The notes: generated by a model from the letters alone, not told the origin. DNA of 64,000 bases from Candidatus Multivoradales bacterium (GCA_965248925.1 CBDFLE010000005.1:448001-512000), one strand, 5' to 3'; positions 14,544 through 26,027 are shown, numbered from the stretch's first letter. Made by a program: numbers and translations.

Positions 14544-16364
14544 CTACCCCTCGGCGACGGTGGATGGGGAGGGAATGAGTCGCGGTGCCGGCCGGTCGCC
14601 GGTGATTCCCCAGACCAACCTATCAATGCCGAAATCGTCAATGCCGCCACGCAGGTCGACCCAAGTGAATTGAGTCAGGAAGAGGGGCAGCTGGGGATCT
14701 CGGGCGGCGCCTGGGAGCAGCACAGGGATCACTGGCAGGCCGCGCCGAACGACTTCTGACAGCGAAGCGCGCATTTCTGGAATCTCCCACGGACCGAGAC
14801 CGTCTGGGCCGACGATCACCGCTGAACTACGCACGGTCTGGATGATCTCCTCGAGAGCCTCCTGCCATGGCTGGCCAGGCTCTAGCTCCCAGATGTCGAG
14901 CCAGGGGCGTAGCTGACGCTCCTTGAGCGCTTCGGCGAGAATGATGACCTGTGCCTTGTCGCGACTCGAATGGCTGAGGAAGCTATCGAAAGCGTCTGCC
15001 GCCATAGGTTCGGTGGAGAAACCACCCGTGCCCGGACGATGTTCCAACGCCGAGCCCACTCCCCGCTGGGGCAATGGCCGATGCGGCCTGCGGCGGCGAC
15101 GCTCGAGTACCAGCAACGAGGCGGTCATCAACACAATCGCCGCCAGCGGATAGGCCAAGTCCACCCAGATTCGCCCCCAGCGCATGGCCAAGATCGCCGC
15201 CGCCGTGGCTGCTGCTGCCAACTGCGTCGCTCGCACCAGCAAACGGCGCGGCCCAGCGCCGCGAGCATAGTGCAAAGCCAAGAGGTAGCAGAGCAGGAAG
15301 AGCAAGGGGAAGCACCAGCTCTTGGGTAGGTAGCGGAAAGTGTTGCCAGTGCGTAGGGTTTGCGCCGCCCAAGCGTGAACTTCGACCCCCTGGGCCGGGC
15401 CCCAGGGAGTGTCTACCCGATCGTCGGGAGAATCGGTGCCGAGCAACACAAAGCGACCACGCAGGCGGCTCCAATCGAGCTGCTGGAGGCTGAGCACCGG
15501 CACGCCACCGCTGGGTCGATGGAAGCGTAGCAGCGGTCCTGGCGGGCTGGGCGGTGGTGGACCGCCATTCAGCATCGTTGCCAGGCGGTTGCTCAGCGAA
15601 ACCCCATCGTCGAGCCGCTGCGTTACCATGCGTACCTTCAGGTCAGCTTCGCGATAGCCGCTGAGGTCGCCGAGACGGGATTCCAAGAGCAGCGGCCGCA
15701 AGCTCTTGTGCGGCTGTTGGCGTACCCAGCGGTCCTCTTGCCGCATCCGTCGGTAGCCGAAGATCACCGGCATGTCGGCCTTTTCGGCCTCTTGTAACAC
15801 ATGCCGCAGCAGTGCGTCCGATAGGGTCTTTCGTTCGAGGTAGTAGTCCAGAGCCAGGCCGCGAACACCGTGGTCGACCGCTTGCTGGATGATCTGCGCC
15901 AGGGTGCGTCGGAACTCGGCGAGGTTCTGGTCGCGCTTGAAGGGGAGGGTCAGCACCACCAGATCATCGAGCGGAGGCATCTTTGGCGCCACCCGATAGT
16001 GCCAATCACCGAGGAAGTTCAATCCCAGATGTCGTCTTGGCTCTTGCTCACCGAAAGTGCCTTGCAACTCGCGTTTGCCGGTCAAGAGGTCGCCGCTGGT
16101 GGCCACCGCCAGCAGCAGACAGAAGGTGAGGAAGAAGACCAAGAAGCCGTTGCCCAAGGCGCGGGGGCTGTCGCGTCGTGCCCAGTACCAGAGTACCGCC
16201 GAGCCTAGCGCTAGAGGCGACAGCAGGAGCAGTGCTTGGCCGGGTTGCTGCCACAGCGGGGCGACGCGGCGTTGTAACAAGACATCTACCGCCAGCGCGG
16301 GCAGCGCCAGCAAGAGCAGGCGAACCAGGTCGAGGCGCAGCCAAGCGAGTAGTGAACGTTGCAA
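14544..16364 (-). CDS. membrane receptor: TM helices - CHASE2 - TM helices - TIR domain
   Basis: CHASE2 motifs RRTLAQII..GVRGLALDYY and RGRFVLLG..DTPWG..GVEVHA; C-terminal TIR FDSFLSHSSRDK..PWLD..W..GPWEIPEM..VIPVLLPG..WVDLR; TTG start at 16364 directly after the upstream stop. Confidence 0.85.
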   Translation of the reverse strand: MQRSLLAWLRLDLVRLLLLALPALAVDVLLQRRVAPLWQQPGQALLLLSPLALGSAVLWYWARRDSPRALGNGFLVFFLTFCLLLAVATSGDLLTGKRELQGTFGEQEPRRHLGLNFLGDWHYRVAPKMPPLDDLVVLTLPFKRDQNLAEFRRTLAQIIQQAVDHGVRGLALDYYLERKTLSDALLRHVLQEAEKADMPVIFGYRRMRQEDRWVRQQPHKSLRPLLLESRLGDLSGYREADLKVRMVTQRLDDGVSLSNRLATMLNGGPPPPSPPGPLLRFHRPSGGVPVLSLQQLDWSRLRGRFVLLGTDSPDDRVDTPWGPAQGVEVHAWAAQTLRTGNTFRYLPKSWCFPLLFLLCYLLALHYARGAGPRRLLVRATQLAAAATAAAILAMRWGRIWVDLAYPLAAIVLMTASLLVLERRRRRPHRPLPQRGVGSALEHRPGTGGFSTEPMAADAFDSFLSHSSRDKAQVIILAEALKERQLRPWLDIWELEPGQPWQEALEEIIQTVRSSAVIVGPDGLGPWEIPEMRASLSEVVRRGLPVIPVLLPGAARDPQLPLFLTQFTWVDLRGGIDDFGIDRLVWGITGDRPAPRLIPSPSTVAEG

Positions 16365-16365
16365 T

Positions 16366-17616
16366 TCAGCGCGGCAGCTGCAAGTCGTGCAGGATTCGAC
16401 AGATGCGGAGTTCGGCGGCAGGTATCTTCTGCCCCCTCTTGACCAAGCGCAGGGCGCGGCTGGCATACGTCCCGGCGCGGCTATCGGTCCAGCCATCGAC
16501 GCCGCCGTAGGCTTGGGCCAGTCCGCAGTAGACCCGCGCCGTGGGCTCGCGCTTGGCTAGCTTGGTGAGCGCGGTCAAGGCAGCAGAGTAGTTCTGCTGA
16601 TCGAGCAAGGCCCAGGGGTTTGAGGCCAGCGGCTGAGCGAGTACGGCGGTTGGTAGCCGGTAGATCTGCGACTGGAACTGAGCCTTGGGTTGGTAAAGCT
16701 TTTCTTTCTGCGGTTCAGGGATAGCGGCCGGATCGATGCGGTAGCTTCGCAGCTTCACCTCGTCGTCGATCTCTGCTCTCTTCAGATTGTAGATCGCTGC
16801 CTTGCCGATCTTGAGATCGAGCTGAGTTTTGGCCAACTCCGCGCGCCCGGACGGATCGTCGGGCTTGCTGAGCACATTGGCGTGCAGAGCCTTGAGTTGT
16901 TCGATTTTCTGTTGGATGTCTCCCCTTGCAGTTGTGCCTGGGCTGCCTGGGATTTCCTCAGCGAAGTAACTCTTGGCCAGGTCGAGGCGGGCGTAGACTT
17001 TGGCGGCTCGCTGCGAGTGGGTTTTGTTTAGTTTGCCTCGGCTGGACTCCTTGCCATCCCAGCCCCAAGTTTCGCCAGTCTCTATCTGCCGTATCTCAGC
17101 GCTGATGCGTTGATTGTCTCGGTCACGACCCCGAACCCACAACTTGCCGTCGAAGACCGTCACGTTCTCCTGCACTCCACCCTGGGGATCCCGCTCTAGC
17201 CGGACAGCGTATTGGGTGCCTTCAGAGCCCAGCACCATACCGCCGGCGCGGACCTCGGTGGGGGCATCAGTGAGCACATCGAGCTGGCCACCGAGCAAGT
17301 TGACCGCGCAATCGGTCTCGCCGGGCGGGTTGATCAGCACCCGGAAGCGACCGGAAAAACGGAGCAGCGAAGTCTCGCCGCAGGATAGCTCGATGGCGGT
17401 TTCGCTGCTAATACTGCTCAGCAGATCGCCGATCTCCAGCTTGTCACCGAGGGACAACAGCTCAACCTCCGCGAAATCAGCAAACCGTTCAAGGCGTAGG
17501 TCGCTACTCCCTTCCAGCGGGGTGTCGCCGGCAGCCAGTGAGGTGATTTCGGCCTGCGGCCAGGCGGCGGTGGCAAGTAGCAAGCAAAGGGCGGAAAGTG
17601 AAAAATGACGAAGCAC
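16366..17616 (-). CDS. secreted FecR-like domain protein with TPR-like C-terminus
   Basis: GGAGG RBS + GTG 17616; signal peptide; LLGGQLDV..GSEGTQYAV..VTVFDGKLWV FecR-like pattern; helical TPR-like tail; TATACT -10 box at 17658-17663. Confidence 0.65.
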   Translation of the reverse strand: MLRHFSLSALCLLLATAAWPQAEITSLAAGDTPLEGSSDLRLERFADFAEVELLSLGDKLEIGDLLSSISSETAIELSCGETSLLRFSGRFRVLINPPGETDCAVNLLGGQLDVLTDAPTEVRAGGMVLGSEGTQYAVRLERDPQGGVQENVTVFDGKLWVRGRDRDNQRISAEIRQIETGETWGWDGKESSRGKLNKTHSQRAAKVYARLDLAKSYFAEEIPGSPGTTARGDIQQKIEQLKALHANVLSKPDDPSGRAELAKTQLDLKIGKAAIYNLKRAEIDDEVKLRSYRIDPAAIPEPQKEKLYQPKAQFQSQIYRLPTAVLAQPLASNPWALLDQQNYSAALTALTKLAKREPTARVYCGLAQAYGGVDGWTDSRAGTYASRALRLVKRGQKIPAAELRICRILHDLQLPR

Positions 17617-17677
17617 GATAAAGACCTCCAGGGTTGAGAGGTGGATGTCCACCGAAGAGTATACGTCTACCGGGCTG

Positions 17678-19378: not shown

Positions 19379-19525
19379 GGGGTTTTTCTTAGGACCGGTC
19401 GAGGATACCGGAGATTCGCTGCCTCGGGTCGGTAGATGGGGGTGGGAAGAGCCAGCATTGCGCTGTAGGCTGTCAAGGGGGAATCCCATCTGGCCCAATC
19501 GGTACGCCGTGACAGAGGAGGCAGC

Positions 19526-21025
19526 TTGAGTCAACCAACAGAAACCGATCGCCCCGCAGAGTTCATCGAACGTCTCGACAGCACCGCCATCGATCTTGAG
19601 CTGCATCAGGCGATGGCGGCCGACAAGCGGCGGCGCTACTTCGATGTCATTATCGAAATCAACCTGGTGCACCCTGGCGGGCGCGAGTGGGTGCGTGATG
19701 AGCTGATCAAGTGGCTGCAAGAGGCCACCGCGAGGAACGCTCGCTGTGGGGTACATTTGCTGAAGAGTGAGTACAGCTCGCGCTTCATCTTCGCTAGTTT
19801 GGCTCGCCGGCAGGTTCGTGCTCTGATCGAGCATGATCGCCGGCCTGACCACAAATGGCTGGTCTACAAGGTCTGGTGGGATGTCGAAATCGAGTCGTTG
19901 CTCACCGAGTCGGTGCGCACGGTCAAGGCCGACGCGGCACGGGCGGCATTTGCCGCCGCTGGCAGCAATGTGGTGTGGGCGGTGGTGGATTCCGGCATCC
20001 AAGGCGACCATCAGCATTTTCAACAGCACCGAAATCTGGACCTTAGAGAGCCCCTACAGCATGCCGACTTCACCACTGCGGCGCTCAGCGCTGAATCACC
20101 CCATGTGCCTTTCGAGCAGCTCCAAGACCCGGCCGGCCACGGCACCCATGTGGCCGGCATCATCGCCGGTGGCAACAAAGGCAAAGACGAGGCTGGCGAT
20201 CGTCGCCCGGTCTACGCCTCGATTCGCACTCGCGACGTCAACAACAAGACCGCTCATGAACGCAAACCTCTAAAGTCGATCTGGGGAGTCGCGCCGCGCT
20301 GCAAATTGGTCAGCTTGCGGGTCCTTGACGAGCGTGGCAAGGGAAAAGTCAGCAACATCATTGCCGCGCTGGGTTACATCCAGAAAATCAACAATCACGG
20401 CCGCTGGTTGCACATCCATGGAGTCAACCTGAGTGTTGGTTACGAATTTGAAGCCGAGGCCTTTGCCTGCGGCCACAGCCCGCTGTGCGTGGCGGTCGAT
20501 CGGCTGGTGCGCAGCGGCGTGGTGGTGGTGACCGCCGCCGGCAACTCGGGCTATGGCCCGGTGCTGGTCGGCAAGCGGGGTGGCAAATCCTTCCGCACCT
20601 CCCAAGACTTGACGATCAACGATCCGGGCAACGCTGAAATGGCGATTACGGTAGGAGCCACCCACCGTGAAAAGCCGCATATGTATGGCGTGTCTTATTT
20701 TTCATCGCGGGGCCCAACCGCTGACGGTCGCTGGAAGCCCGACCTAGTGGCGCCGGGGGAGAAGATCATCTCCTGCGCCGCCGACTCCAAGACCGAATCG
20801 ATCGATGGCTTGGCTTGCACCTACCGCGAAGATAGCGGTACTAGCATGGCGGCGCCGCACGTCTCCGGCGCGGTGGCGGCGTTCTTGTCGATTCGCAAGG
20901 AGTTCATGGGGGAGCCAGAGCGGGTCAAAGAAATCTTCCTCGCCACCGCCACGGACTTGGGACGTGAACGTTACTTTCAAGGCCATGGTCTGCTCGACCT
21001 GATGCGAGCCATTCAATCCGTTTGA
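19526..21025 (+). CDS. cytoplasmic S8 (subtilisin-like) serine peptidase
   Basis: Triad VVDSGI / HGTHVAGII / GTSMAAPHV, oxyanion AAGNSG; GAGGAGG RBS; no signal peptide; about 130-aa N-terminal pro-region. Confidence 0.93.
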   Translation: MSQPTETDRPAEFIERLDSTAIDLELHQAMAADKRRRYFDVIIEINLVHPGGREWVRDELIKWLQEATARNARCGVHLLKSEYSSRFIFASLARRQVRALIEHDRRPDHKWLVYKVWWDVEIESLLTESVRTVKADAARAAFAAAGSNVVWAVVDSGIQGDHQHFQQHRNLDLREPLQHADFTTAALSAESPHVPFEQLQDPAGHGTHVAGIIAGGNKGKDEAGDRRPVYASIRTRDVNNKTAHERKPLKSIWGVAPRCKLVSLRVLDERGKGKVSNIIAALGYIQKINNHGRWLHIHGVNLSVGYEFEAEAFACGHSPLCVAVDRLVRSGVVVVTAAGNSGYGPVLVGKRGGKSFRTSQDLTINDPGNAEMAITVGATHREKPHMYGVSYFSSRGPTADGRWKPDLVAPGEKIISCAADSKTESIDGLACTYREDSGTSMAAPHVSGAVAAFLSIRKEFMGEPERVKEIFLATATDLGRERYFQGHGLLDLMRAIQSV

Positions 21026-21037
21026 AGGAGGTTAGCG

Positions 21038-22330
21038 ATGCACGAGATCGAAGGATTCCCCTACCGTGAAGTGCAGCTGCGAAAAGACGGTAGGATCCAC
21101 GACGATGCCGAAGTCGACAACGTGATCGAGAGCATCTTCGGCGGCGGCACGACCGATTTACTGGTCTTTGCCCACGGCTGGAAGAACGATCTGAACGATG
21201 CTCGCGGCATCTATCGCCAGCTCGCTCGCCGGCTGCGCGAGCAGATCGATGGGGGCTTCGATATTGGCAATCGTAAGTTGGCGATTCTGGGCTGGTTGTG
21301 GCCAGCAAAGAAATTCACCGACCCGGAGCTGATCGTCGGTGGTGGCGCCTCGGCGGACGATGACGACATGAAGGAACTCTTCGCCGATCTCGAAGACTTC
21401 TTCGACGCCGCCGATGCCGATGCCAAGCTGGCTCAGCTACACCAGCTGCTCAATCAAGAAGATCCCGATTTCGCCGTGGTTGCCGATTTGATAGGTCATT
21501 TGGTGGAGCCCGACGACATCGGCGACGATTTGGCGCTAGAGCTGTCGCCAGAGTTCTTCAGCGACTCGGCCGAGGAGGTGCTCGACACCCTTTCCAAGCC
21601 CACGCTCGGTGATGTGCTGGGCAATGCGCCAGGGGATGATGAGGTTGGGGGCGGTCAAGCCGGTCTGTTCGGCGACCTGCTCGGCGGCATCCGCTCCGGC
21701 GCCCGCAAGTTCCTCAACGCAACGACGTATTACCAAATGAAAAAGCGGGCTGGCGTGGTCGGTTCTCGGGGTGGCCTTGACATCCTGAAGCGTATTCGCC
21801 AGATCCATCCCCAGCTGCGTTTACACCTGGTCGGCCACAGTTTCGGTGGCAGAGTAGTGGCGGCCGCCGCCACTGGCCCCAACGGCGTCTCAGATCTCGA
21901 GATTGACAGCCTTAGTCTGTTGCAAGCAGCTTTTTCCCACCACGGCTTGGGCCGCACCAAGGACGGCAAAGAAGGATTCTTCCGCCCGGTGGTGGCGCAG
22001 CAGCGAGTGCGTGGTCCGATTCTCATCACCCACACCAAGAACGACCAGGCGGTCCAGTTGCCTTACGCCATCGCCTCCCGCCTGACCGGTCAAGACGCCG
22101 CCGCCGTCGGCGATGCTGAGGACTCCTATGGCGCCATCGGCAGCAACGGTGCCCAAGGCACGCCGGAAGTCGATGTCGACAACAAGCTGCTGCTAGATCC
22201 TGGTGGGATCTACGCTTTCGCCGCTCACAAACCCCACAACCTGCTTGCCGACGCGCACATCCCGAGCCACAACGAGGTCGCTCAGCCAGCGGTGGCCAAC
22301 GTTATCTTGCAGGCGGTGTTACAGAGTTGA
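21038..22330 (+). CDS. alpha/beta-fold hydrolase with internal acidic insert
   Basis: FAHGWKN, LWPAKKF, TYYQMKKRAG, GHSFG nucleophile elbow, LLQAAFS, ND, SHNE; AAGGAGG RBS; 12 bp after the S8 stop. Confidence 0.85.
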   Translation: MHEIEGFPYREVQLRKDGRIHDDAEVDNVIESIFGGGTTDLLVFAHGWKNDLNDARGIYRQLARRLREQIDGGFDIGNRKLAILGWLWPAKKFTDPELIVGGGASADDDDMKELFADLEDFFDAADADAKLAQLHQLLNQEDPDFAVVADLIGHLVEPDDIGDDLALELSPEFFSDSAEEVLDTLSKPTLGDVLGNAPGDDEVGGGQAGLFGDLLGGIRSGARKFLNATTYYQMKKRAGVVGSRGGLDILKRIRQIHPQLRLHLVGHSFGGRVVAAAATGPNGVSDLEIDSLSLLQAAFSHHGLGRTKDGKEGFFRPVVAQQRVRGPILITHTKNDQAVQLPYAIASRLTGQDAAAVGDAEDSYGAIGSNGAQGTPEVDVDNKLLLDPGGIYAFAAHKPHNLLADAHIPSHNEVAQPAVANVILQAVLQS

Positions 22331-22989: not shown

Positions 22990-24406
22990 CTCTTCTCAAC
23001 TTGCAGTGGGTACCGGAGGCTGTAGTTTGATGCCGCCACAGTTGAGGAAGATCATGGCAGAGAGTGCTTGATGGGAGTGGAAACCAAAAGCACGTCGGGC
23101 GATCATTCTGATCTTCCCGTTGATGCCTTCGACGAGTCCATTGGTGAGGCGTGTTCTGATGTAGGCGAGAATGCCGACCCGGTGTTTGCGGATCGTTCGA
23201 GCGGCCTTGACAAAGGGCTTGAGCTTAGATCTCGACGCCCAAGCCAGCCATTCTCCAAGTTCCATCTCTGCTCGCCAGGGTTGGCGATAGTCGAGGGCTT
23301 GAGCCAACGTCTCCTTGAGGAGGTAAGCCCGGTATAGCCGCCGGTTCTTAGCTTGGATCTCCGCGAGCTTACTGCGCTGGTTGCAACTCAAGTTCCAAGG
23401 ATTCTTGAGCAGGACGTAGCGCGTGCTCTTGACGGCTCGGGCCCTCTCGGGATCGATCGCCAGCTCGCGGACGATGCTGCGCCGCACTTCGTCAACCGGG
23501 TCGGAGGCCAAACGCTGTACATGGAAGCGATCGAAGACGACTTCCGCTTTCGCCAGCCCTTCACGGGCGGCCTTGATGAAGGCTGCGGAAAGGTCGATGG
23601 TGACCGTCTCGATCTTCTGGCACTGCTCCTCGCCGAGGAGTTCGAAGAAGGGCGCCAGAGTCTCGGAACTCTTGCCTTCGCCCGTCCAAACGACGCGACG
23701 GCGGTCATGGTCGACGACAATCGTCAAGTACCGATGCCGCTTACGATAGCTGAACTCATCGATGCCAATCCGGCGCAGACCCAGAAGGCGCTCAGGATCG
23801 AGGCGACGCGCCACGACCCGCTCGACGATCGAACCGACTGTTTGCCAAGAGATGGCGAGGAGTCGTTGGACTTGAGTCTTGTCGGTGACCTGCGCCAGAT
23901 AAGCGGCCATCTCCTCAAAGTCGTAGGTGAAGCGGCTACCCCGGTCGGCCCAGGGCACCCGCTCGACGCGTACACCGCAATTGCGGCAGTTCACCCGCCA
24001 AGGCTCATAGATCAGCTCCACAGACGCCCGTCCCCACGGGACATGCCGCCACCGGCGTAGAGGTCGGCGGTCATACCGCGAAGCCTTCCGGCCGCAGTGC
24101 CCGCACCGGGAAATACGCCAGGTTGGCCGGACCTGGATCGCGAGTCCCCCCTCGACGGTGAACGCGACCTCTTCGACGTACATCTTCGTGACAGCAAGAA
24201 GGCGACGGAATACAGTAGTGATGCGCATGGGGTGACCCCTCCTCCTCGGTTTTGTAGTACTTCCAAGGAGAACAGGAAACCCTGTGCGTTTTCAACTACT
24301 TACAGCCTCGTCATTTCGCCATGCTTGCTGCCGGTCGTCCTCGCCCGTCTATGGGCGGCCGGCAGCAAGTGTGGCGAAATCCACCCACTCCTATTTGAGG
24401 AGAGCC
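22990..24406 (-). mobile_element. ISL3-family insertion sequence
   Basis: Imperfect IRs: GGCTCTCCTCAAATAGGAGTGGGT at the 24406 end versus CTCTTCTCAACTTGCAGTGGGT at 22990 (terminal GG missing); no TSD. Confidence 0.8.
22996..24228 (-). CDS. ISL3 family transposase
   Basis: Zn finger CGHC..CRNC, IGIDEFSYRK, TIDLS, FDRFHV, TNGLVEGINGKI. Confidence 0.95.
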   Translation of the reverse strand: MRITTVFRRLLAVTKMYVEEVAFTVEGGLAIQVRPTWRISRCGHCGRKASRYDRRPLRRWRHVPWGRASVELIYEPWRVNCRNCGVRVERVPWADRGSRFTYDFEEMAAYLAQVTDKTQVQRLLAISWQTVGSIVERVVARRLDPERLLGLRRIGIDEFSYRKRHRYLTIVVDHDRRRVVWTGEGKSSETLAPFFELLGEEQCQKIETVTIDLSAAFIKAAREGLAKAEVVFDRFHVQRLASDPVDEVRRSIVRELAIDPERARAVKSTRYVLLKNPWNLSCNQRSKLAEIQAKNRRLYRAYLLKETLAQALDYRQPWRAEMELGEWLAWASRSKLKPFVKAARTIRKHRVGILAYIRTRLTNGLVEGINGKIRMIARRAFGFHSHQALSAMIFLNCGGIKLQPPVPTAS

Positions 24407-24530
24407 ACTTTTCTGATGCCCTTGCTAGTGCTGATCGGAGCAACAGACGACGGCAGGAAGGAGCTGATTGCTGTCGAGGATGGATACCGCGAGAGCGAGG
24501 CCTCATGGATGGAGATGCTCCGTGGCCTAG
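24407..24530 (+). pseudogene. IS256-family transposase internal fragment (part 1)
   Basis: LLVLIGATDDGRKELIAVEDGYRESEASW. Confidence 0.8.
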
Positions 24531-26027
24531 CAGCCCGTGGCAGAAGTCCGTTTCTACAAAATGTGGCCTAAATTGAGGCCAGCCGGCGCAGGTGGTCTGA
24601 TCGAAGATCTTAGTGGCCAATATCCGCTCTCGTGCGGCAGAAGCCAGCTCAGCAAGCTACATACGGCGCGAAAGCCCTGTTCGAGAGCCGAAAGAAAGCC
24701 CTGAAGGGCCCGTGGAGTGCCGGCTCCATACATTTGACGAAGCAGCAGCCCAAGATTGAATCCCGCGATGTGAATCAGCAACCTTTTGCGGATGTTGTCG
24801 TGACCTCGAAGGTGGGTCCTTCTCATACCGCCAGTCTCGTAGCAATGGGCAAAGGTGCGTTCTACTTTCTCTCCTCGACGCCGCGACAGCTCGCGGCCTC
24901 GACGACCCTTGATCCGTCGACGGTTGGCATACACCGCTTGCTTCTCCGCCTCTTTGCCGCACCAGTTGCGTCGGCCTCGATCCGGTTCCGAAATATAGGT
25001 TCGAATCTTCCCTTGACGCTGTGCCTTCATGACCGCGTTACTGTGATAGCCCTTGTCAGCCACCAGCTCTGAACGGACTTTCTCGCTCAAGTGATCGCCA
25101 GCCTCCGAATCCTCAACGACATCTTCCAGCACCGCAGCGACTTCATCCAACGTCCGCTCTAGGCTCGACGTGTCCCCTCGGTCTGCAGGTTGCACCGTCA
25201 CCGCCACAACCGCACCCGTCTCCATATCCACCGCATGCTCGGCTTTGTGCGCCAGATGCGTCCGCCCATCCTTCATTCGCGTGACTTTGGCGTCGGGATC
25301 GTGGGGGTTCTTCCAGTCGCCGTTCGACGTCTTTTTGTTCTTCCTTTGGCGGTCAAAACGCGCCAGATCCGCTCGCGTCGGGGTCTCCACACCCGAAGCC
25401 TCGGCCAGGCGCGTGAGAAACTCTTCGTAGCTCTCGCCCGAGTCTCGACGCACGATGCTGCGCATCGCCGCGTTCGCCTCGAGGGTCGTCGCATCGATGC
25501 CCAGCGTCTTTCCCCGGAGCAAGCCAGCCTTCGCCAGTACTTGCAAAGCCCAAGCAAACACCGCCTCATGGGTCTCGAGATCGATCAGGCGACGGGTCCG
25601 AGAGAGCGTCGAATGGTCCGGGGTCTGGTCCGAGAGTTCGAAGCCCAGAAAGTCGCGCAGAGTCATCGAATCCGCAAGCCGCCATGCGATACCTCGCTCA
25701 GAGTCGATACCCTCGAAGAAGCCGATCAACAGCAACCGAAAATACACCGCGGGCGCCAGCGAAGGCCGTCCCATCCTCGTAGCGTAAAACCTCGCGCACT
25801 GCTCCTCGATAAAGCGATCGAAACCGTGCTTGTCGAGAATCTTGGACAGACGCTCGTAGAAAGGATGTCCTGGGGACTTGGCCAGCGCCTGGGTTTCCAC
25901 CTAGAGCTGCCGCTGTCTTCGTTTGCTTCGCCTGCCCATCGCCATGGTCGCTACCTCCCTCGGGTGGAAAGATTCTACCGGGGAAGATCGCCAAGACGGC
26001 CGTAATCGGGACTTTCACCACGGGCTG
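24531..26027 (-). mobile_element. IS5/IS1182-type insertion sequence (1497 bp)
   Basis: IRs CAGCCCGTGG-N3-AAGTCC at both ends; CTAG duplicated at 24527-24530 and 26028-26031. Confidence 0.9.
24554..25945 (-). pseudogene. IS1182-like transposase (DUF772 + DDE) with an early in-frame TAG
   Basis: AGGGAGGT RBS + ATG 25945 gives MAMGRRSKRRQRQL*VETQ..PGHPFY; GIDSERGIAWR, IDATTLEANA, ADKGY; GTG at 25900 could restart a 448-aa product. Confidence 0.8.

Follow-up and report, generated by a model that had tools for sequence, protein, structure and literature searches.

A two-gene S8 subtilase and alpha/beta-hydrolase pair as a candidate protease-activated effector module

It has recently become established that bacterial immunity commonly relies on proteases to license latent death enzymes; for alpha/beta-hydrolases the case consists so far of a single example, linked to a caspase and of unknown substrate. 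That example comes from Lysobacter capsici AZ78 where, as set out in the main text of Evans et al. (bioRxiv 10.1101/2025.11.14.688446), LcCaspase cuts the alpha/beta-hydrolase zymogen LcHydrolase at two sites, after which the N and C fragments together kill E. coli and the middle one can be dispensed with. The same main text lists an S8-linked MBL clade (‘MBL clade 3’) and defensive proteases that have no effector partner. Together with that of Tuck et al. (Science 2026, PMC12799240), it presents protease-linked MBL nucleases as proenzymes activated by two cuts, the proteases being trypsin-like or caspase and the settings AVAST, Lamassu, Hachiman and DRT systems. In gasdermin systems, as summarized in the Johnson et al. 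preprint, bacterial bGSDM occurs with C14, CHAT or subtilase proteases, and fungal HET-Q1 is partnered by the S8 protease HET-Q2. Literature searches brought up no description of an S8 protease paired with an alpha/beta-hydrolase: the words ‘subtilisin’ or ‘subtilase’ appear 0 times in the main text of Tuck et al., 3 times in that of Evans et al. and once in that of Kaur et al., on none of these occasions about an alpha/beta-hydrolase, though the supplements could list such pairs. A preliminary description of the pair considered below had mentioned protease-activated alpha/beta-hydrolases working with other classes of protease, and LcHydrolase/LcCaspase is just such a precedent.

The window, i.e. 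the whole stretch of DNA analysed, comprises 64,000 nucleotides from Candidatus Multivoradales bacterium (GCA_965248925.1 CBDFLE010000005.1:448001-512000). On its plus strand, to which all coordinates refer, an S8 subtilase gene (19526-21025; TTG start, 499 aa, without a predicted hydrophobic N-terminus) is followed after a 12 nt spacer by the gene of an alpha/beta-hydrolase, a putative zymogen (21038-22330; ATG start, 430 aa). Read from the sequence, a Shine-Dalgarno-like GAGGAGG (19515..19521) ends 4 nt 5' of the TTG, and a Shine-Dalgarno AGGAGG (21026..21031) abuts the S8 stop codon and ends 6 nt 5' of the hydrolase ATG, bearing out the two-gene operon with a 12-bp gap and strong ribosome binding site that had been proposed. 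A promoter scan of the locus gave 0 sites, and terminator-like sites were no more frequent than expected by chance. The claim that signal peptides are absent agrees with a Kyte-Doolittle scan, a crude test rather than a signal-peptide predictor, in which neither protein had a hydrophobic N-terminal stretch (the maximum mean of a 12-residue window in the first ~50 aa was 1.1 for S8 and 1.3 for the hydrolase). No NCBIfam model exceeded its cut-off for the pair, and the family is annotated only as ‘S8 family peptidase’ plus ‘hypothetical protein’.

The first protein belongs to peptidase family S8, having the Asp-His-Ser triad in order plus an oxyanion Asn, and it matches PF00082 at 1.8e-43 (149.4 bits versus a Pfam cut-off of 21.8). 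Within the catalytic domain (residues 130-499; 19913..21022), D155 (codon 19988-19990), H205 (20138-20140), the oxyanion N340 (20543-20545) and S440 (20843-20845) are invariant in 25 homologous sequences, so that the triad is intact as had been claimed, and as it is in pro-subtilisins and intracellular subtilisins (ISP of Bacillus clausii). Preceding it is a propeptide-like (I9-type) domain at residues ~37-125 (19634..19900), modelled by AF2 with pLDDT 83-93 and a beta-alpha-beta-alpha-beta-beta order. Unprocessed pro-subtilisins align over residues 3/37-499 of the model (Z 24-27) and mature subtilisins only over residues 130/132-499 (Z about 19.7); in fold and relative position the N-terminal domain is like those of pro-subtilisin E, pro-Tk-subtilisin and ProN-Tk-SP (I9). 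A Pfam search of S8 gave no I9 family at E <= 0.01, and it is by the fold of the model that the protein appears to be pro-subtilisin-like. Its architecture comprises no more than the catalytic domain, preceded by the propeptide-like one and a short tail at the N-terminus, with Pfam, the AF2 model and fold comparison all failing to reveal a fused sensor domain. Of the two roles suggested previously for the N-terminal region, sensor or inhibitor, the subtilisin-propeptide-like fold fits the latter. Unlike secreted I9 pro-subtilisins, this protease lacks a signal peptide and its gene is paired with that of a dedicated substrate-like partner. An invariant T-V-K-A-D-A-A at residues 132-138 was considered as a GAAS-related autoprocessing site and rejected, as it corresponds to the first helix of the subtilisin mature domain. 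Neither is the pair an IetAS system, in which a full-length IetS adjoins an IetA ATPase: the IetS match to S8 is partial (3.5e-14 over residues 258-468; 34 bits versus an NCBIfam cut-off of 900).

The second protein has a PF00561 (Abhydrolase_1) score of 22.1 bits, below the 25.8 gathering cut-off; Foldseek of its model against the PDB returned nothing at E <= 1e-3, and a profile (A1) had 0 matches to PDB sequences. The core of the AF2 model (pTM 0.82) nevertheless has an alpha/beta-hydrolase fold, with VIA-align matches to a DDHD phospholipase domain, thioesterases, lipases and Tle3 (Z 12-14.1 over 160-246 aligned residues). PF05990 (DUF900) occurs on 19% of the members of the nearest Atlas cluster, which we record as a lead; Pfam gave no match of this family to the hydrolase itself at E <= 0.01. 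The N-terminal core segment (residues 1-93; 21038..21316) contains strands 7-14, 40-46 and 81-87, and invariant H46-G47-W48 and W88-P89, the latter opening the WPAKKF motif at residue 88. The C-terminal core (residues 216-430; 21683..22327) contains TYYQMK from residue 230 and, starting with GHSFG at residue 266, the nucleophile elbow G266-H-S268-F-G270 (S268 codon 21839-21841), which together with D336 (22043-22045) and H411 (22268-22270) is invariant in 20 sequences. Order and conservation make S268, D336 and H411 a putative Ser-Asp-His triad, and the invariance of elbow and putative triad across phyla argues for selection on hydrolase catalysis.

Between these two parts the preliminary description had noted an acidic insert of 98 aa (residues 106-203) with 30 D/E and 3 K/R, and a recount gives identical numbers. 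Acidity is a family trait, the median net charge being -12 in 259 homologues, with the window copy, whose charge from the WPAKKF anchor to the TYYQMK one is -27, near the family extreme. Helices in the AF2 model, charge and conservation delimit an acidic helical domain, a putative inhibitory plug, at residues 107-193 (21356..21616). Six helices are modelled between residues 108 and 186, the block-mean pLDDT being 74-88 over residues 111-160 and 56-72 over 161-190, and hydrophobic positions L118, F122, L131, L137, L141, L151 and L185 are conserved. A search of the ESM Atlas with the insert alone brought up no look-alike and no usable match.

Three stretches of the hydrolase have pLDDT < 50. One is a loop at 353-375; the others, 91-106 and 190-215, are the linkers to the insert, so that in the model a folded domain of helices has a disordered linker on either side. 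Linker 1 (residues 94-106, with LIVGGGAS; 21317..21355) and linker 2 (residues 194-215, with GNAPG and VGGGQAG; 21617..21682) are the candidate first and second cleavage regions. The earlier idea that one motif brackets the insert stands in that VGGGA (residues 100-104; 21335-21349) and VGGGQ (residues 203-207; 21644-21658) are where they were said to be, though the literal VGGGQ is partly specific to the window because at least 248/259 homologues have gaps in place of residues 200-205 (DDEVGG). At least two VGGG motifs arose in 100 of 200,000 shuffles of the hydrolase protein, and duplication at the DNA level is ruled out by the differing codons of the two. What the 259 homologues share is a consensus L-I-P-[GS]-G-A-A-[SG] at residues 98-105 of linker 1 (G102 retained in 243, A104 in 247), and in linker 2 G-G-A-x-G at 195-199 and G-A-A-G at 206-209 (G195 in 217, G199 in 224, A207 in 225, G209 in 210). 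Conservation of glycine motifs at the two linkers, a check that had been proposed, was borne out in the form of Gly/Ala motifs in 216/240 homologues for the first and 212/240 for the second.

Do these motifs mark where the protease cuts? AA-type motifs at both linkers are also retained in a hydrolase clade linked to CHAT proteases, which argues against S8-specific sites; the Gly/Ala motifs need not be S8 cut sites and may be structural. Lid insertions are common in alpha/beta-hydrolases, and motifs conserved whatever the class of partner protease would suit an insert that is a mere lid of a lipase-like enzyme, its Gly/Ala stretches acting as hinges while S8 acts elsewhere, e.g. on peptides of the same pathway, and leaves the hydrolase uncut. 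We regard this as the least probable of the readings weighed here: it leaves the linkage, the fusions and the parallel wiring to CHAT, all described below, without explanation, and is a poor fit to the double cut described in the main text of Evans et al. (bioRxiv 10.1101/2025.11.14.688446).

Judged by the published main text, the pair has several features in common with that precedent. In both cases a protease gene is linked to that of an alpha/beta-hydrolase whose substrate is unknown; the N-terminal piece of the hydrolase is separated from the nucleophile-bearing C-terminal piece by an internal segment, which two sites (in the window, candidate sites) flank; and the proposed outcome is a death effector. 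There are differences as well. The protease of the window is an S8 pro-subtilisin rather than a caspase-like cysteine protease, and unlike the proteases of the published modules, as there described, it has no fused sensor domain. The hydrolase is ~430 aa against ~295 aa for LcHydrolase (estimated from published fragment sizes), and where LcHydrolase loses a fragment of 4.7 kDa, the part putatively excised here would be an acidic, folded domain of ~100-150 aa. R|G, the motif at which LcHydrolase is described as being cut, has no counterpart as a conserved feature of the window hydrolase linkers in 259 sequences: linker 1 has no Arg, and the R219 column in linker 2 is a gap in 251/259. With the MBL pro-nucleases (HamM, Avs-linked MBL, CanC), on the main-text accounts, the pair would share two insertions or linkers, two cuts (here inferred) and activation, but its effector is an alpha/beta-hydrolase rather than an MBL nuclease, and whereas those enzymes are described as needing all three fragments, the middle piece here is presumed dispensable, as that of LcHydrolase is.

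Like the gasdermin-protease systems, so far as the texts cited describe them, the pair as proposed here would have a dedicated protease, sometimes of the S8 class, removing the inhibitory segment of a latent death effector, though with two flanking sites in place of one C-terminal cut, and with an enzyme rather than a pore former as effector. S8 also matches the PADLOC ‘subtilase’ model (2.3e-49), which may derive from gasdermin systems. No gasdermin was found beside the pair in the window, where neither of the two ORFs at 14544-17652, scanned against PADLOC, matched bGSDM.

Linkage of the two genes in homologues, also put forward earlier as a check, is strict. In 78 of 80 loci the hydrolase gene is immediately preceded by S8 in the same orientation, which is 78/78 of those that are informative since the other two have just 62 and 39 nt of upstream DNA, and the loci come from many phyla, with S8 homologues 45-59% identical to that of the window. 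There is no third conserved gene, ATPase or other, in the 80 loci: the next real family occurs in 10, and a cluster found in 76 consists, to judge by its coordinates, of antisense ORFs over the S8 gene. Distances among the S8 proteins correlate with those among the hydrolases (Mantel r = 0.61, 58 pairs, 0/999 permutations as high), with shared descent contributing. Five of the best 150 representatives are fusions of 979-1,065 aa with the hydrolase N-terminal and pro-S8 C-terminal; the four in which both sequence anchors could be found (they were not in P0227) keep the insert and the IP[GS]GAA motif. The hydrolase family has 1,838 sequence-cluster representatives at E <= 1e-3, and 393 confirmed stretches were found among 185,579 species genomes, again from many phyla.

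Fusion and strict linkage imply physical contact, and contact would also be expected were the roles reversed, with the protease as the effector that broadly cleaves host or phage proteins, and the hydrolase with its insert and linkers a bound pseudo-substrate, inhibitor or sensor restraining S8 until removed by a trigger. The effector-less defensive proteases listed in the main text of Evans et al. (bioRxiv 10.1101/2025.11.14.688446) and the conservation of a folded insert that has no known look-alike are in keeping with such a scheme. It is nonetheless highly doubtful in our view given the invariant nucleophile elbow and putative triad of the hydrolase, an S8 that already has a propeptide-type inhibitor of its own, and the pairing of the same S8 clade with other catalytic effectors.

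Those other pairings run in both directions. A sister hydrolase clade, 27-29% identical, keeps the acidic insert (29-37 D/E versus 11-19 K/R) and has no S8 within about 3 kb; instead, in 6/6 loci (tblastn), it stands in an operon of hydrolase, unknown protein and CHAT, the CHAT being Pfam-confirmed in the 3 scanned. In a third hydrolase subfamily (L109, L114) the upstream genes show no homology between loci. Conversely, S8 paralogues that share ~45% identity (BLAST) with S8 across the last 250-300 residues of the catalytic domain have an MBL hydrolase as next gene in 9/9 loci, its PADLOC matches being to LmuA (1.6e-44), RTasMBL (7.7e-29) and Avs1a (1.5e-28), contexts that also figure in the papers on gated pro-nucleases. 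The window's own genome has such an S8 paralogue, whose identity to the window S8 in the C-terminal half of the catalytic domain is about 45% (BLAST; 52% by genome search); the gene after it encodes an MBL hydrolase matching the LmuA, Avs1a and RTasMBL models. Other S8 relatives have a calcineurin-like phosphoesterase as partner or a fused second alpha/beta-hydrolase. As a separate observation, the S8-linked MBLs carry V-G-x-A-S and A-x-A-A-A-[YF], a hint of a common ‘A-A’ preference in the S8 clade; with the second MBL motif adjoining invariant core residues and the AA motifs persisting next to CHAT, this has been demoted to a weak lead.

Around the pair, the 127 nearest ORFs scanned contain 156 Pfam families, none of them in more than 3 members, and are mostly ordinary genes; PADLOC family matches among them each occur in just 1 member, and bGSDM is the nearest neighbour once (L009), a homologous locus with a bGSDM gene directly upstream of S8. 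On a Rhizobium plasmid the pair sits between ABC-transporter and thiamine (thi) genes. In Larkinella bovis, by contrast, the run reads bGSDM, S8, hydrolase, TIR, SLOG and LRR-Roc-COR-TIR. In the window a TIR protein is encoded 3 kb upstream and two IS transposases, scanned with Pfam, just downstream, and a symporter-like ORF lies in between. Close homologues are patchy, being present in 4/60 related genomes, and tblastn against a phage collection gave no match.

Might the pair then be a housekeeping one, with S8 a constitutive dedicated maturase, the hydrolase an ordinary enzyme of lipid or polymer turnover or stress response, and the insert an intramolecular chaperone or pro-segment, and with no immune or suicide role for any of them? 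Folding-aid pro-segments are the norm in subtilisins. The mostly metabolic or transport neighbours, among them those on the Rhizobium plasmid, the missing sensor domain and the lack of phage matches all lean that way. We think this unlikely, while allowing it appreciable weight: patchiness among relatives, a neighbourhood that varies by locus with IS elements beside the pair in the window, the wiring of the same hydrolase family to an unrelated protease class and of the same S8 clade to MBLs matching PADLOC defence-system models, and the gasdermin and TIR island in Larkinella bovis all tell against it.

We consider it moderately probable that the pair is a self-contained two-gene protease-effector module of the suicide-enzyme type in which S8 gates a latent hydrolase. 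The protease-activated zymogen of the preliminary description gains support from the anatomy and strict linkage, the fusions, the swaps of protease and effector class (CHAT and MBL), the disorder and conservation of the linkers and the LcHydrolase precedent. Gene 1 would encode a cytoplasmic pro-subtilisin, i.e. an I9-like propeptide plus an S8 catalytic domain, and gene 2 a latent alpha/beta-hydrolase in which an acidic domain of folded helices, tethered by two disordered linkers rich in Gly/Ala, splits the core into an oxyanion-bearing N-terminal part and a segment with the nucleophile. To judge from its fold, the propeptide would keep S8 inactive until a cue of stress or infection frees the protease. 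Active S8 would then, we infer, cut the hydrolase in or near both linkers, and with the insert lost or displaced the N and C parts would form an active serine hydrolase, by analogy to LcHydrolase. This enzyme would harm the cell, its likeliest targets being esters or lipids, hydrolysed in the manner of a lipase or esterase, and the resulting growth arrest or death could limit phage or another mobile element.

A bolder form of the same idea is a sensor-less two-zymogen cascade in which part of the module is itself the infection sensor. In one version the strongly acidic helical insert would be a decoy that a phage protein binds or attacks, e.g. because it mimics a nucleic acid; in the other the I9-like propeptide of S8 would be a guarded element whose loss arms the protease. 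Though either version is improbable on present indications, if true two proteins would be enough to sense, amplify and execute, with no need of a STAND, TPR or other receptor domain.

That a protease should gate a latent effector is already known. What would be new in the pair is S8 as the driver, the lack of a sensor domain and a large folded insert. It would bring a second, independent protease class to the same effector idea, with a putative inhibitory domain that is folded and far larger than that of the precedent. The idea is directly testable, since among the bacteria with homologues there are cultured ones (Larkinella bovis, Hymenobacter, Rhizobium, Rhodococcus jostii RHA1 and a Burkholderia species). 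How are such proteases triggered? A minimal system without a receptor would be a place to ask.

The pair consists of an S8 subtilase ORF of 499 aa with a TTG start (window positions 19526-21025, plus strand) and, 12 nt further on, a 430-aa alpha/beta-hydrolase ORF with an ATG start (21038-22330, plus strand). A strong Shine-Dalgarno sequence lies ahead of each ORF, and the two-gene layout of the preliminary description is borne out by the sequence. The protease matches Pfam PF00082 (1.8e-43) and the 'subtilase' model of PADLOC, a library of defence-system models (2.3e-49), with no NCBIfam model above its own cut-off. Its D155, H205, N340 and S440 do not vary among 25 sequences and, with the Pfam match, uphold the claim of an intact triad (D155, H205, S440). 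The hydrolase scores 22.1 bits with Pfam PF00561, below the 25.8 cut-off, and has no PADLOC match listed. A crude hydropathy test detected no hydrophobic N-terminus in either protein, in keeping with the reported lack of signal peptides. The hydrolase figures given earlier were all reproduced: WPAKKF starts at residue 88, TYYQMK at 230 and GHSFG at 266, VGGGA occupies residues 100-104 and VGGGQ 203-207, and residues 106-203 hold 30 Asp/Glu versus 3 Lys/Arg. The codons differ between the two VGGG copies, and two such motifs arose in 100 of 200,000 shuffles of the hydrolase composition.

In the AF2 model of the protease (mean pLDDT 69) residues ~37-125 form a confident N-terminal beta-alpha-beta-alpha-beta-beta domain. 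Since the unprocessed proteins ProN-Tk-SP, pro-subtilisin E, pro-Tk-subtilisin and PCSK9 align from residue 3, 19 or 37 of the model (Z 23-27), whereas mature subtilisins do so only from residue 130/132 (Z ~19.7), the N-terminal region is, as modelled, a domain of the propeptide type. It had been put forward as sensor or inhibitor; the inhibitor option fits, and a separate sensor domain is absent, no domain beyond the propeptide-type and catalytic ones, and no sensor, being evident in the protein.

Protease and hydrolase travel together. In 78 of 80 fetched loci an S8 gene, its product 45-59% identical to that of the window, ends just before the hydrolase gene on the same strand, and the two exceptions have merely 62 and 39 nt of DNA upstream of the hydrolase, so that the S8 linkage looked for in homologues is there. 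The distances of the two proteins correlate over 58 pairs (Mantel r = 0.61, reached in none of 999 permutations), a figure to which shared descent contributes. Among the best 150 representatives five fuse both proteins into one chain of 979-1,065 aa, hydrolase N-terminal and S8 C-terminal; the insert and an IP[GS]GAA motif are retained in four of the five, those in which both anchors (WPAKKF and TYYQMK, the core motifs on either side of the insert) were detected. Alignment of the fusions to the window S8 begins at residue 12-76, so that all five retain the greater part of the propeptide region. No third conserved gene was found across the 80 loci, the next family occurring in 10; a cluster in 76 loci was rejected as such a gene, its members being ORFs that overlap the S8 gene in antisense.

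The hydrolase family is large and widespread. A word-indexed search returned 1,876 relatives, the best 120 of them 428-452 aa long and 41-47% identical over 95-100% of the query, and an exhaustive search returned 1,838 representatives at E <= 1e-3, of which 429 reach E <= 1e-30. Of 406 candidate stretches in genomes representing species, 393 were confirmed, from phyla including Acidobacteriota, Actinomycetota, Chloroflexota, Pseudomonadota, Bacteroidota and Cyanobacteria, with Planctomycetota, Verrucomicrobiota, Gemmatimonadota, Nitrospira and Fibrobacteres also represented. Residues invariant in 20 hydrolases include H46-G47-W48, W88-P89, G266-H-S268-F-G270, D336 and H411. The acidic insert is a feature of the whole family: in the 240 of 259 homologues with both anchors detected its median length is 147 aa (range 119-211) and its median net charge -12 (range -29 to +14; -27 in the window copy).

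The segments flanking the insert, whose conservation the preliminary description set as a check, are conserved at fixed positions. Counts among 259 sequences are, for linker 1, L98 218, I99 202, P100 183, G102 243, A103 206 and A104 247, and for linker 2, G195 217, G196 210, A197 197 and G199 224, then G206 163, A207 225, A208 194 and G209 210. At least 248 of the 259 have no residue aligned to window residues 200-205, so VGGGQ in its literal form is in part peculiar to the window copy.

The AF2 model of the hydrolase (mean pLDDT 76, pTM 0.82) has an alpha/beta core, with the insert as helices between residues 108 and 193. Its pLDDT drops below 50 in three stretches (91-106, 190-215 and 353-375), of which the first two coincide, in this prediction, exactly with the linkers. 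The third, a loop encoded at window 22094-22162, is rich in invariant residues (G358, D359, G365, G368, N370, G371, A372 and Q373). Foldseek against the PDB yielded nothing at E <= 1e-3 and a sequence profile no solved relative among PDB sequences; an exhaustive structural aligner matched it, at Z 12-14.1, to general members of the alpha/beta-hydrolase fold (thioesterases, lipases, Tle3 and a DDHD phospholipase domain). In the named Atlas clusters closest to the hydrolase, 19% of members bear DUF900, a lead only.

The strongest indirect support for the hydrolase being a protease substrate comes from swaps of partner, in protease class and in effector class. A sister hydrolase clade, 27-29% identical, has an acidic insert at the same place (29-37 Asp/Glu versus 11-19 Lys/Arg) and no S8 within ~3 kb. 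Its operons run from the insert-bearing hydrolase through a ~500-600-aa protein, for which neither Pfam nor PADLOC gave a match, to a CHAT protease of ~470 aa; this order was found by tblastn in 6/6 loci (L106, L107, L108, L110, L111 and L113; e.g. L108:3380-8156), with CHAT confirmed by Pfam in all three scanned. Conversely, the genome of the window encodes an S8 paralogue whose catalytic domain, in its C-terminal half, is ~45% identical by BLAST (52% as counted by the genome search). This 648-aa protein, with a longer N-terminal region, is followed directly by a 398-aa metallo-beta-lactamase-fold (MBL) hydrolase (contig C6:4549948-4553100, equivalent to L085:5949-9102). Across 401 genomes sampled from the phylum, an MBL hydrolase followed such paralogues in 9/9 cases. 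The S8-linked MBL matches the PADLOC models LmuA (1.6e-44), RTasMBL (7.7e-29) and Avs1a (1.5e-28), and the two genes probably constitute a subtilase-gated pro-nuclease pair. Other S8 relatives in the same sample precede another MBL (L096) or a 461-aa calcineurin-like phosphoesterase (L102:2178-3563), or are fused at the N-terminus to a second type of alpha/beta-hydrolase, as tested for L099 and L100 and as a shared N-terminal motif indicates for L101 and L103; this type of hydrolase domain gives weak Tle3 matches. A third hydrolase subfamily (~26% identical) has a TerD-vWA protein and a ClpB-like AAA+ protein as neighbours (L114:1851-8890), with no protease seen in the 9 kb examined.

Are the linker motifs then what S8 recognizes? 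The CHAT-linked clade has [ILMF]-A-A in linker 1 of five of six sequences, with F-A-S in the sixth, and A-A in linker 2 of five of six, in positions matching those of the S8-linked clade. Being common to clades with different proteases, the motifs may have a structural role, such as refolding once the chain has been cut, instead of being recognized by S8. An extra Lys or Arg in linker 1 of 5/6 CHAT-linked sequences, lacking in the S8-linked clade, hints that the true cut sites differ by protease, though six sequences are few. The CHAT-linked clade also keeps a G-x-G-x-Q-G motif related to hydrolase loop 353-375.

Of 60 related genomes, 4 have close homologues. Immediately downstream in the window are ISL3-family and IS5/DUF772-type transposase genes (22996-25900, minus strand), which suggests recent rearrangement of the region. 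Three kb upstream a 650-aa CHASE2 protein with a C-terminal TIR is encoded. The start of its gene overlaps the 3' end of the preceding ORF, of 428 aa and without a family match, and the two together occupy 14544-17652 on the minus strand. The 127 neighbour ORFs scanned, of 141 selected as nearest neighbours (loci L073-L080 left out), matched 156 Pfam families, each in at most three members, and, among the matches listed, 23 PADLOC families, each in one; the latter include bGSDM, ThsA, ThsB, SoFic and PDC candidates as well as the generic TPR, HerA and BrxL. In Larkinella bovis (L009:3451-13068, NZ_JBHSMA010000004.1) the order on one strand is IS elements, bGSDM (5.3e-83), S8, hydrolase, TIR, SLOG and LRR-Roc-COR-TIR; with bGSDM directly upstream of the pair and no other protease in view, the S8 there might serve two effectors, gasdermin and hydrolase. 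Relatives occur in 29 plasmid records; the two that were examined carry an intact pair, annotated as 'S8 family peptidase' or 'peptidase S8' plus 'hypothetical protein', in one case among transport and thiamine genes. No record of the phage collection gave a tblastn match.

Tuck et al. (PMC12799240) describe gated proenzymes: in Hachiman, AVAST and 'canu' loci, MBL nucleases carry two disordered insertions that a partner trypsin-like or caspase protease cuts. Evans et al. (bioRxiv 10.1101/2025.11.14.688446) list a clade of MBLs with linked S8 proteases, and show that LcCaspase cuts an alpha/beta-hydrolase, LcHydrolase, at R73|G and R117|G; of the resulting pieces of 8.1, 4.7 and 19.8 kDa, the N and C fragments together are lethal to E. 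coli. Caspase and alpha/beta-hydrolase pairings had been noted by Kaur et al. 2020. Linkage of S8 to an alpha/beta-hydrolase is absent from the main texts of these three papers.

Both the anatomy and the comparative picture agree with a latent hydrolase gated by a protease. The full mechanism, an S8-activated zymogen as first proposed, we consider reasonably probable; that S8 processes the hydrolase, a narrower claim, deserves greater confidence, and antiviral defence as the role of the pair deserves less than the mechanism. Latent hydrolases of this kind were described in 2025; the present candidate would differ in being driven by S8, in lacking a receptor domain and in having a large, folded, acidic plug.
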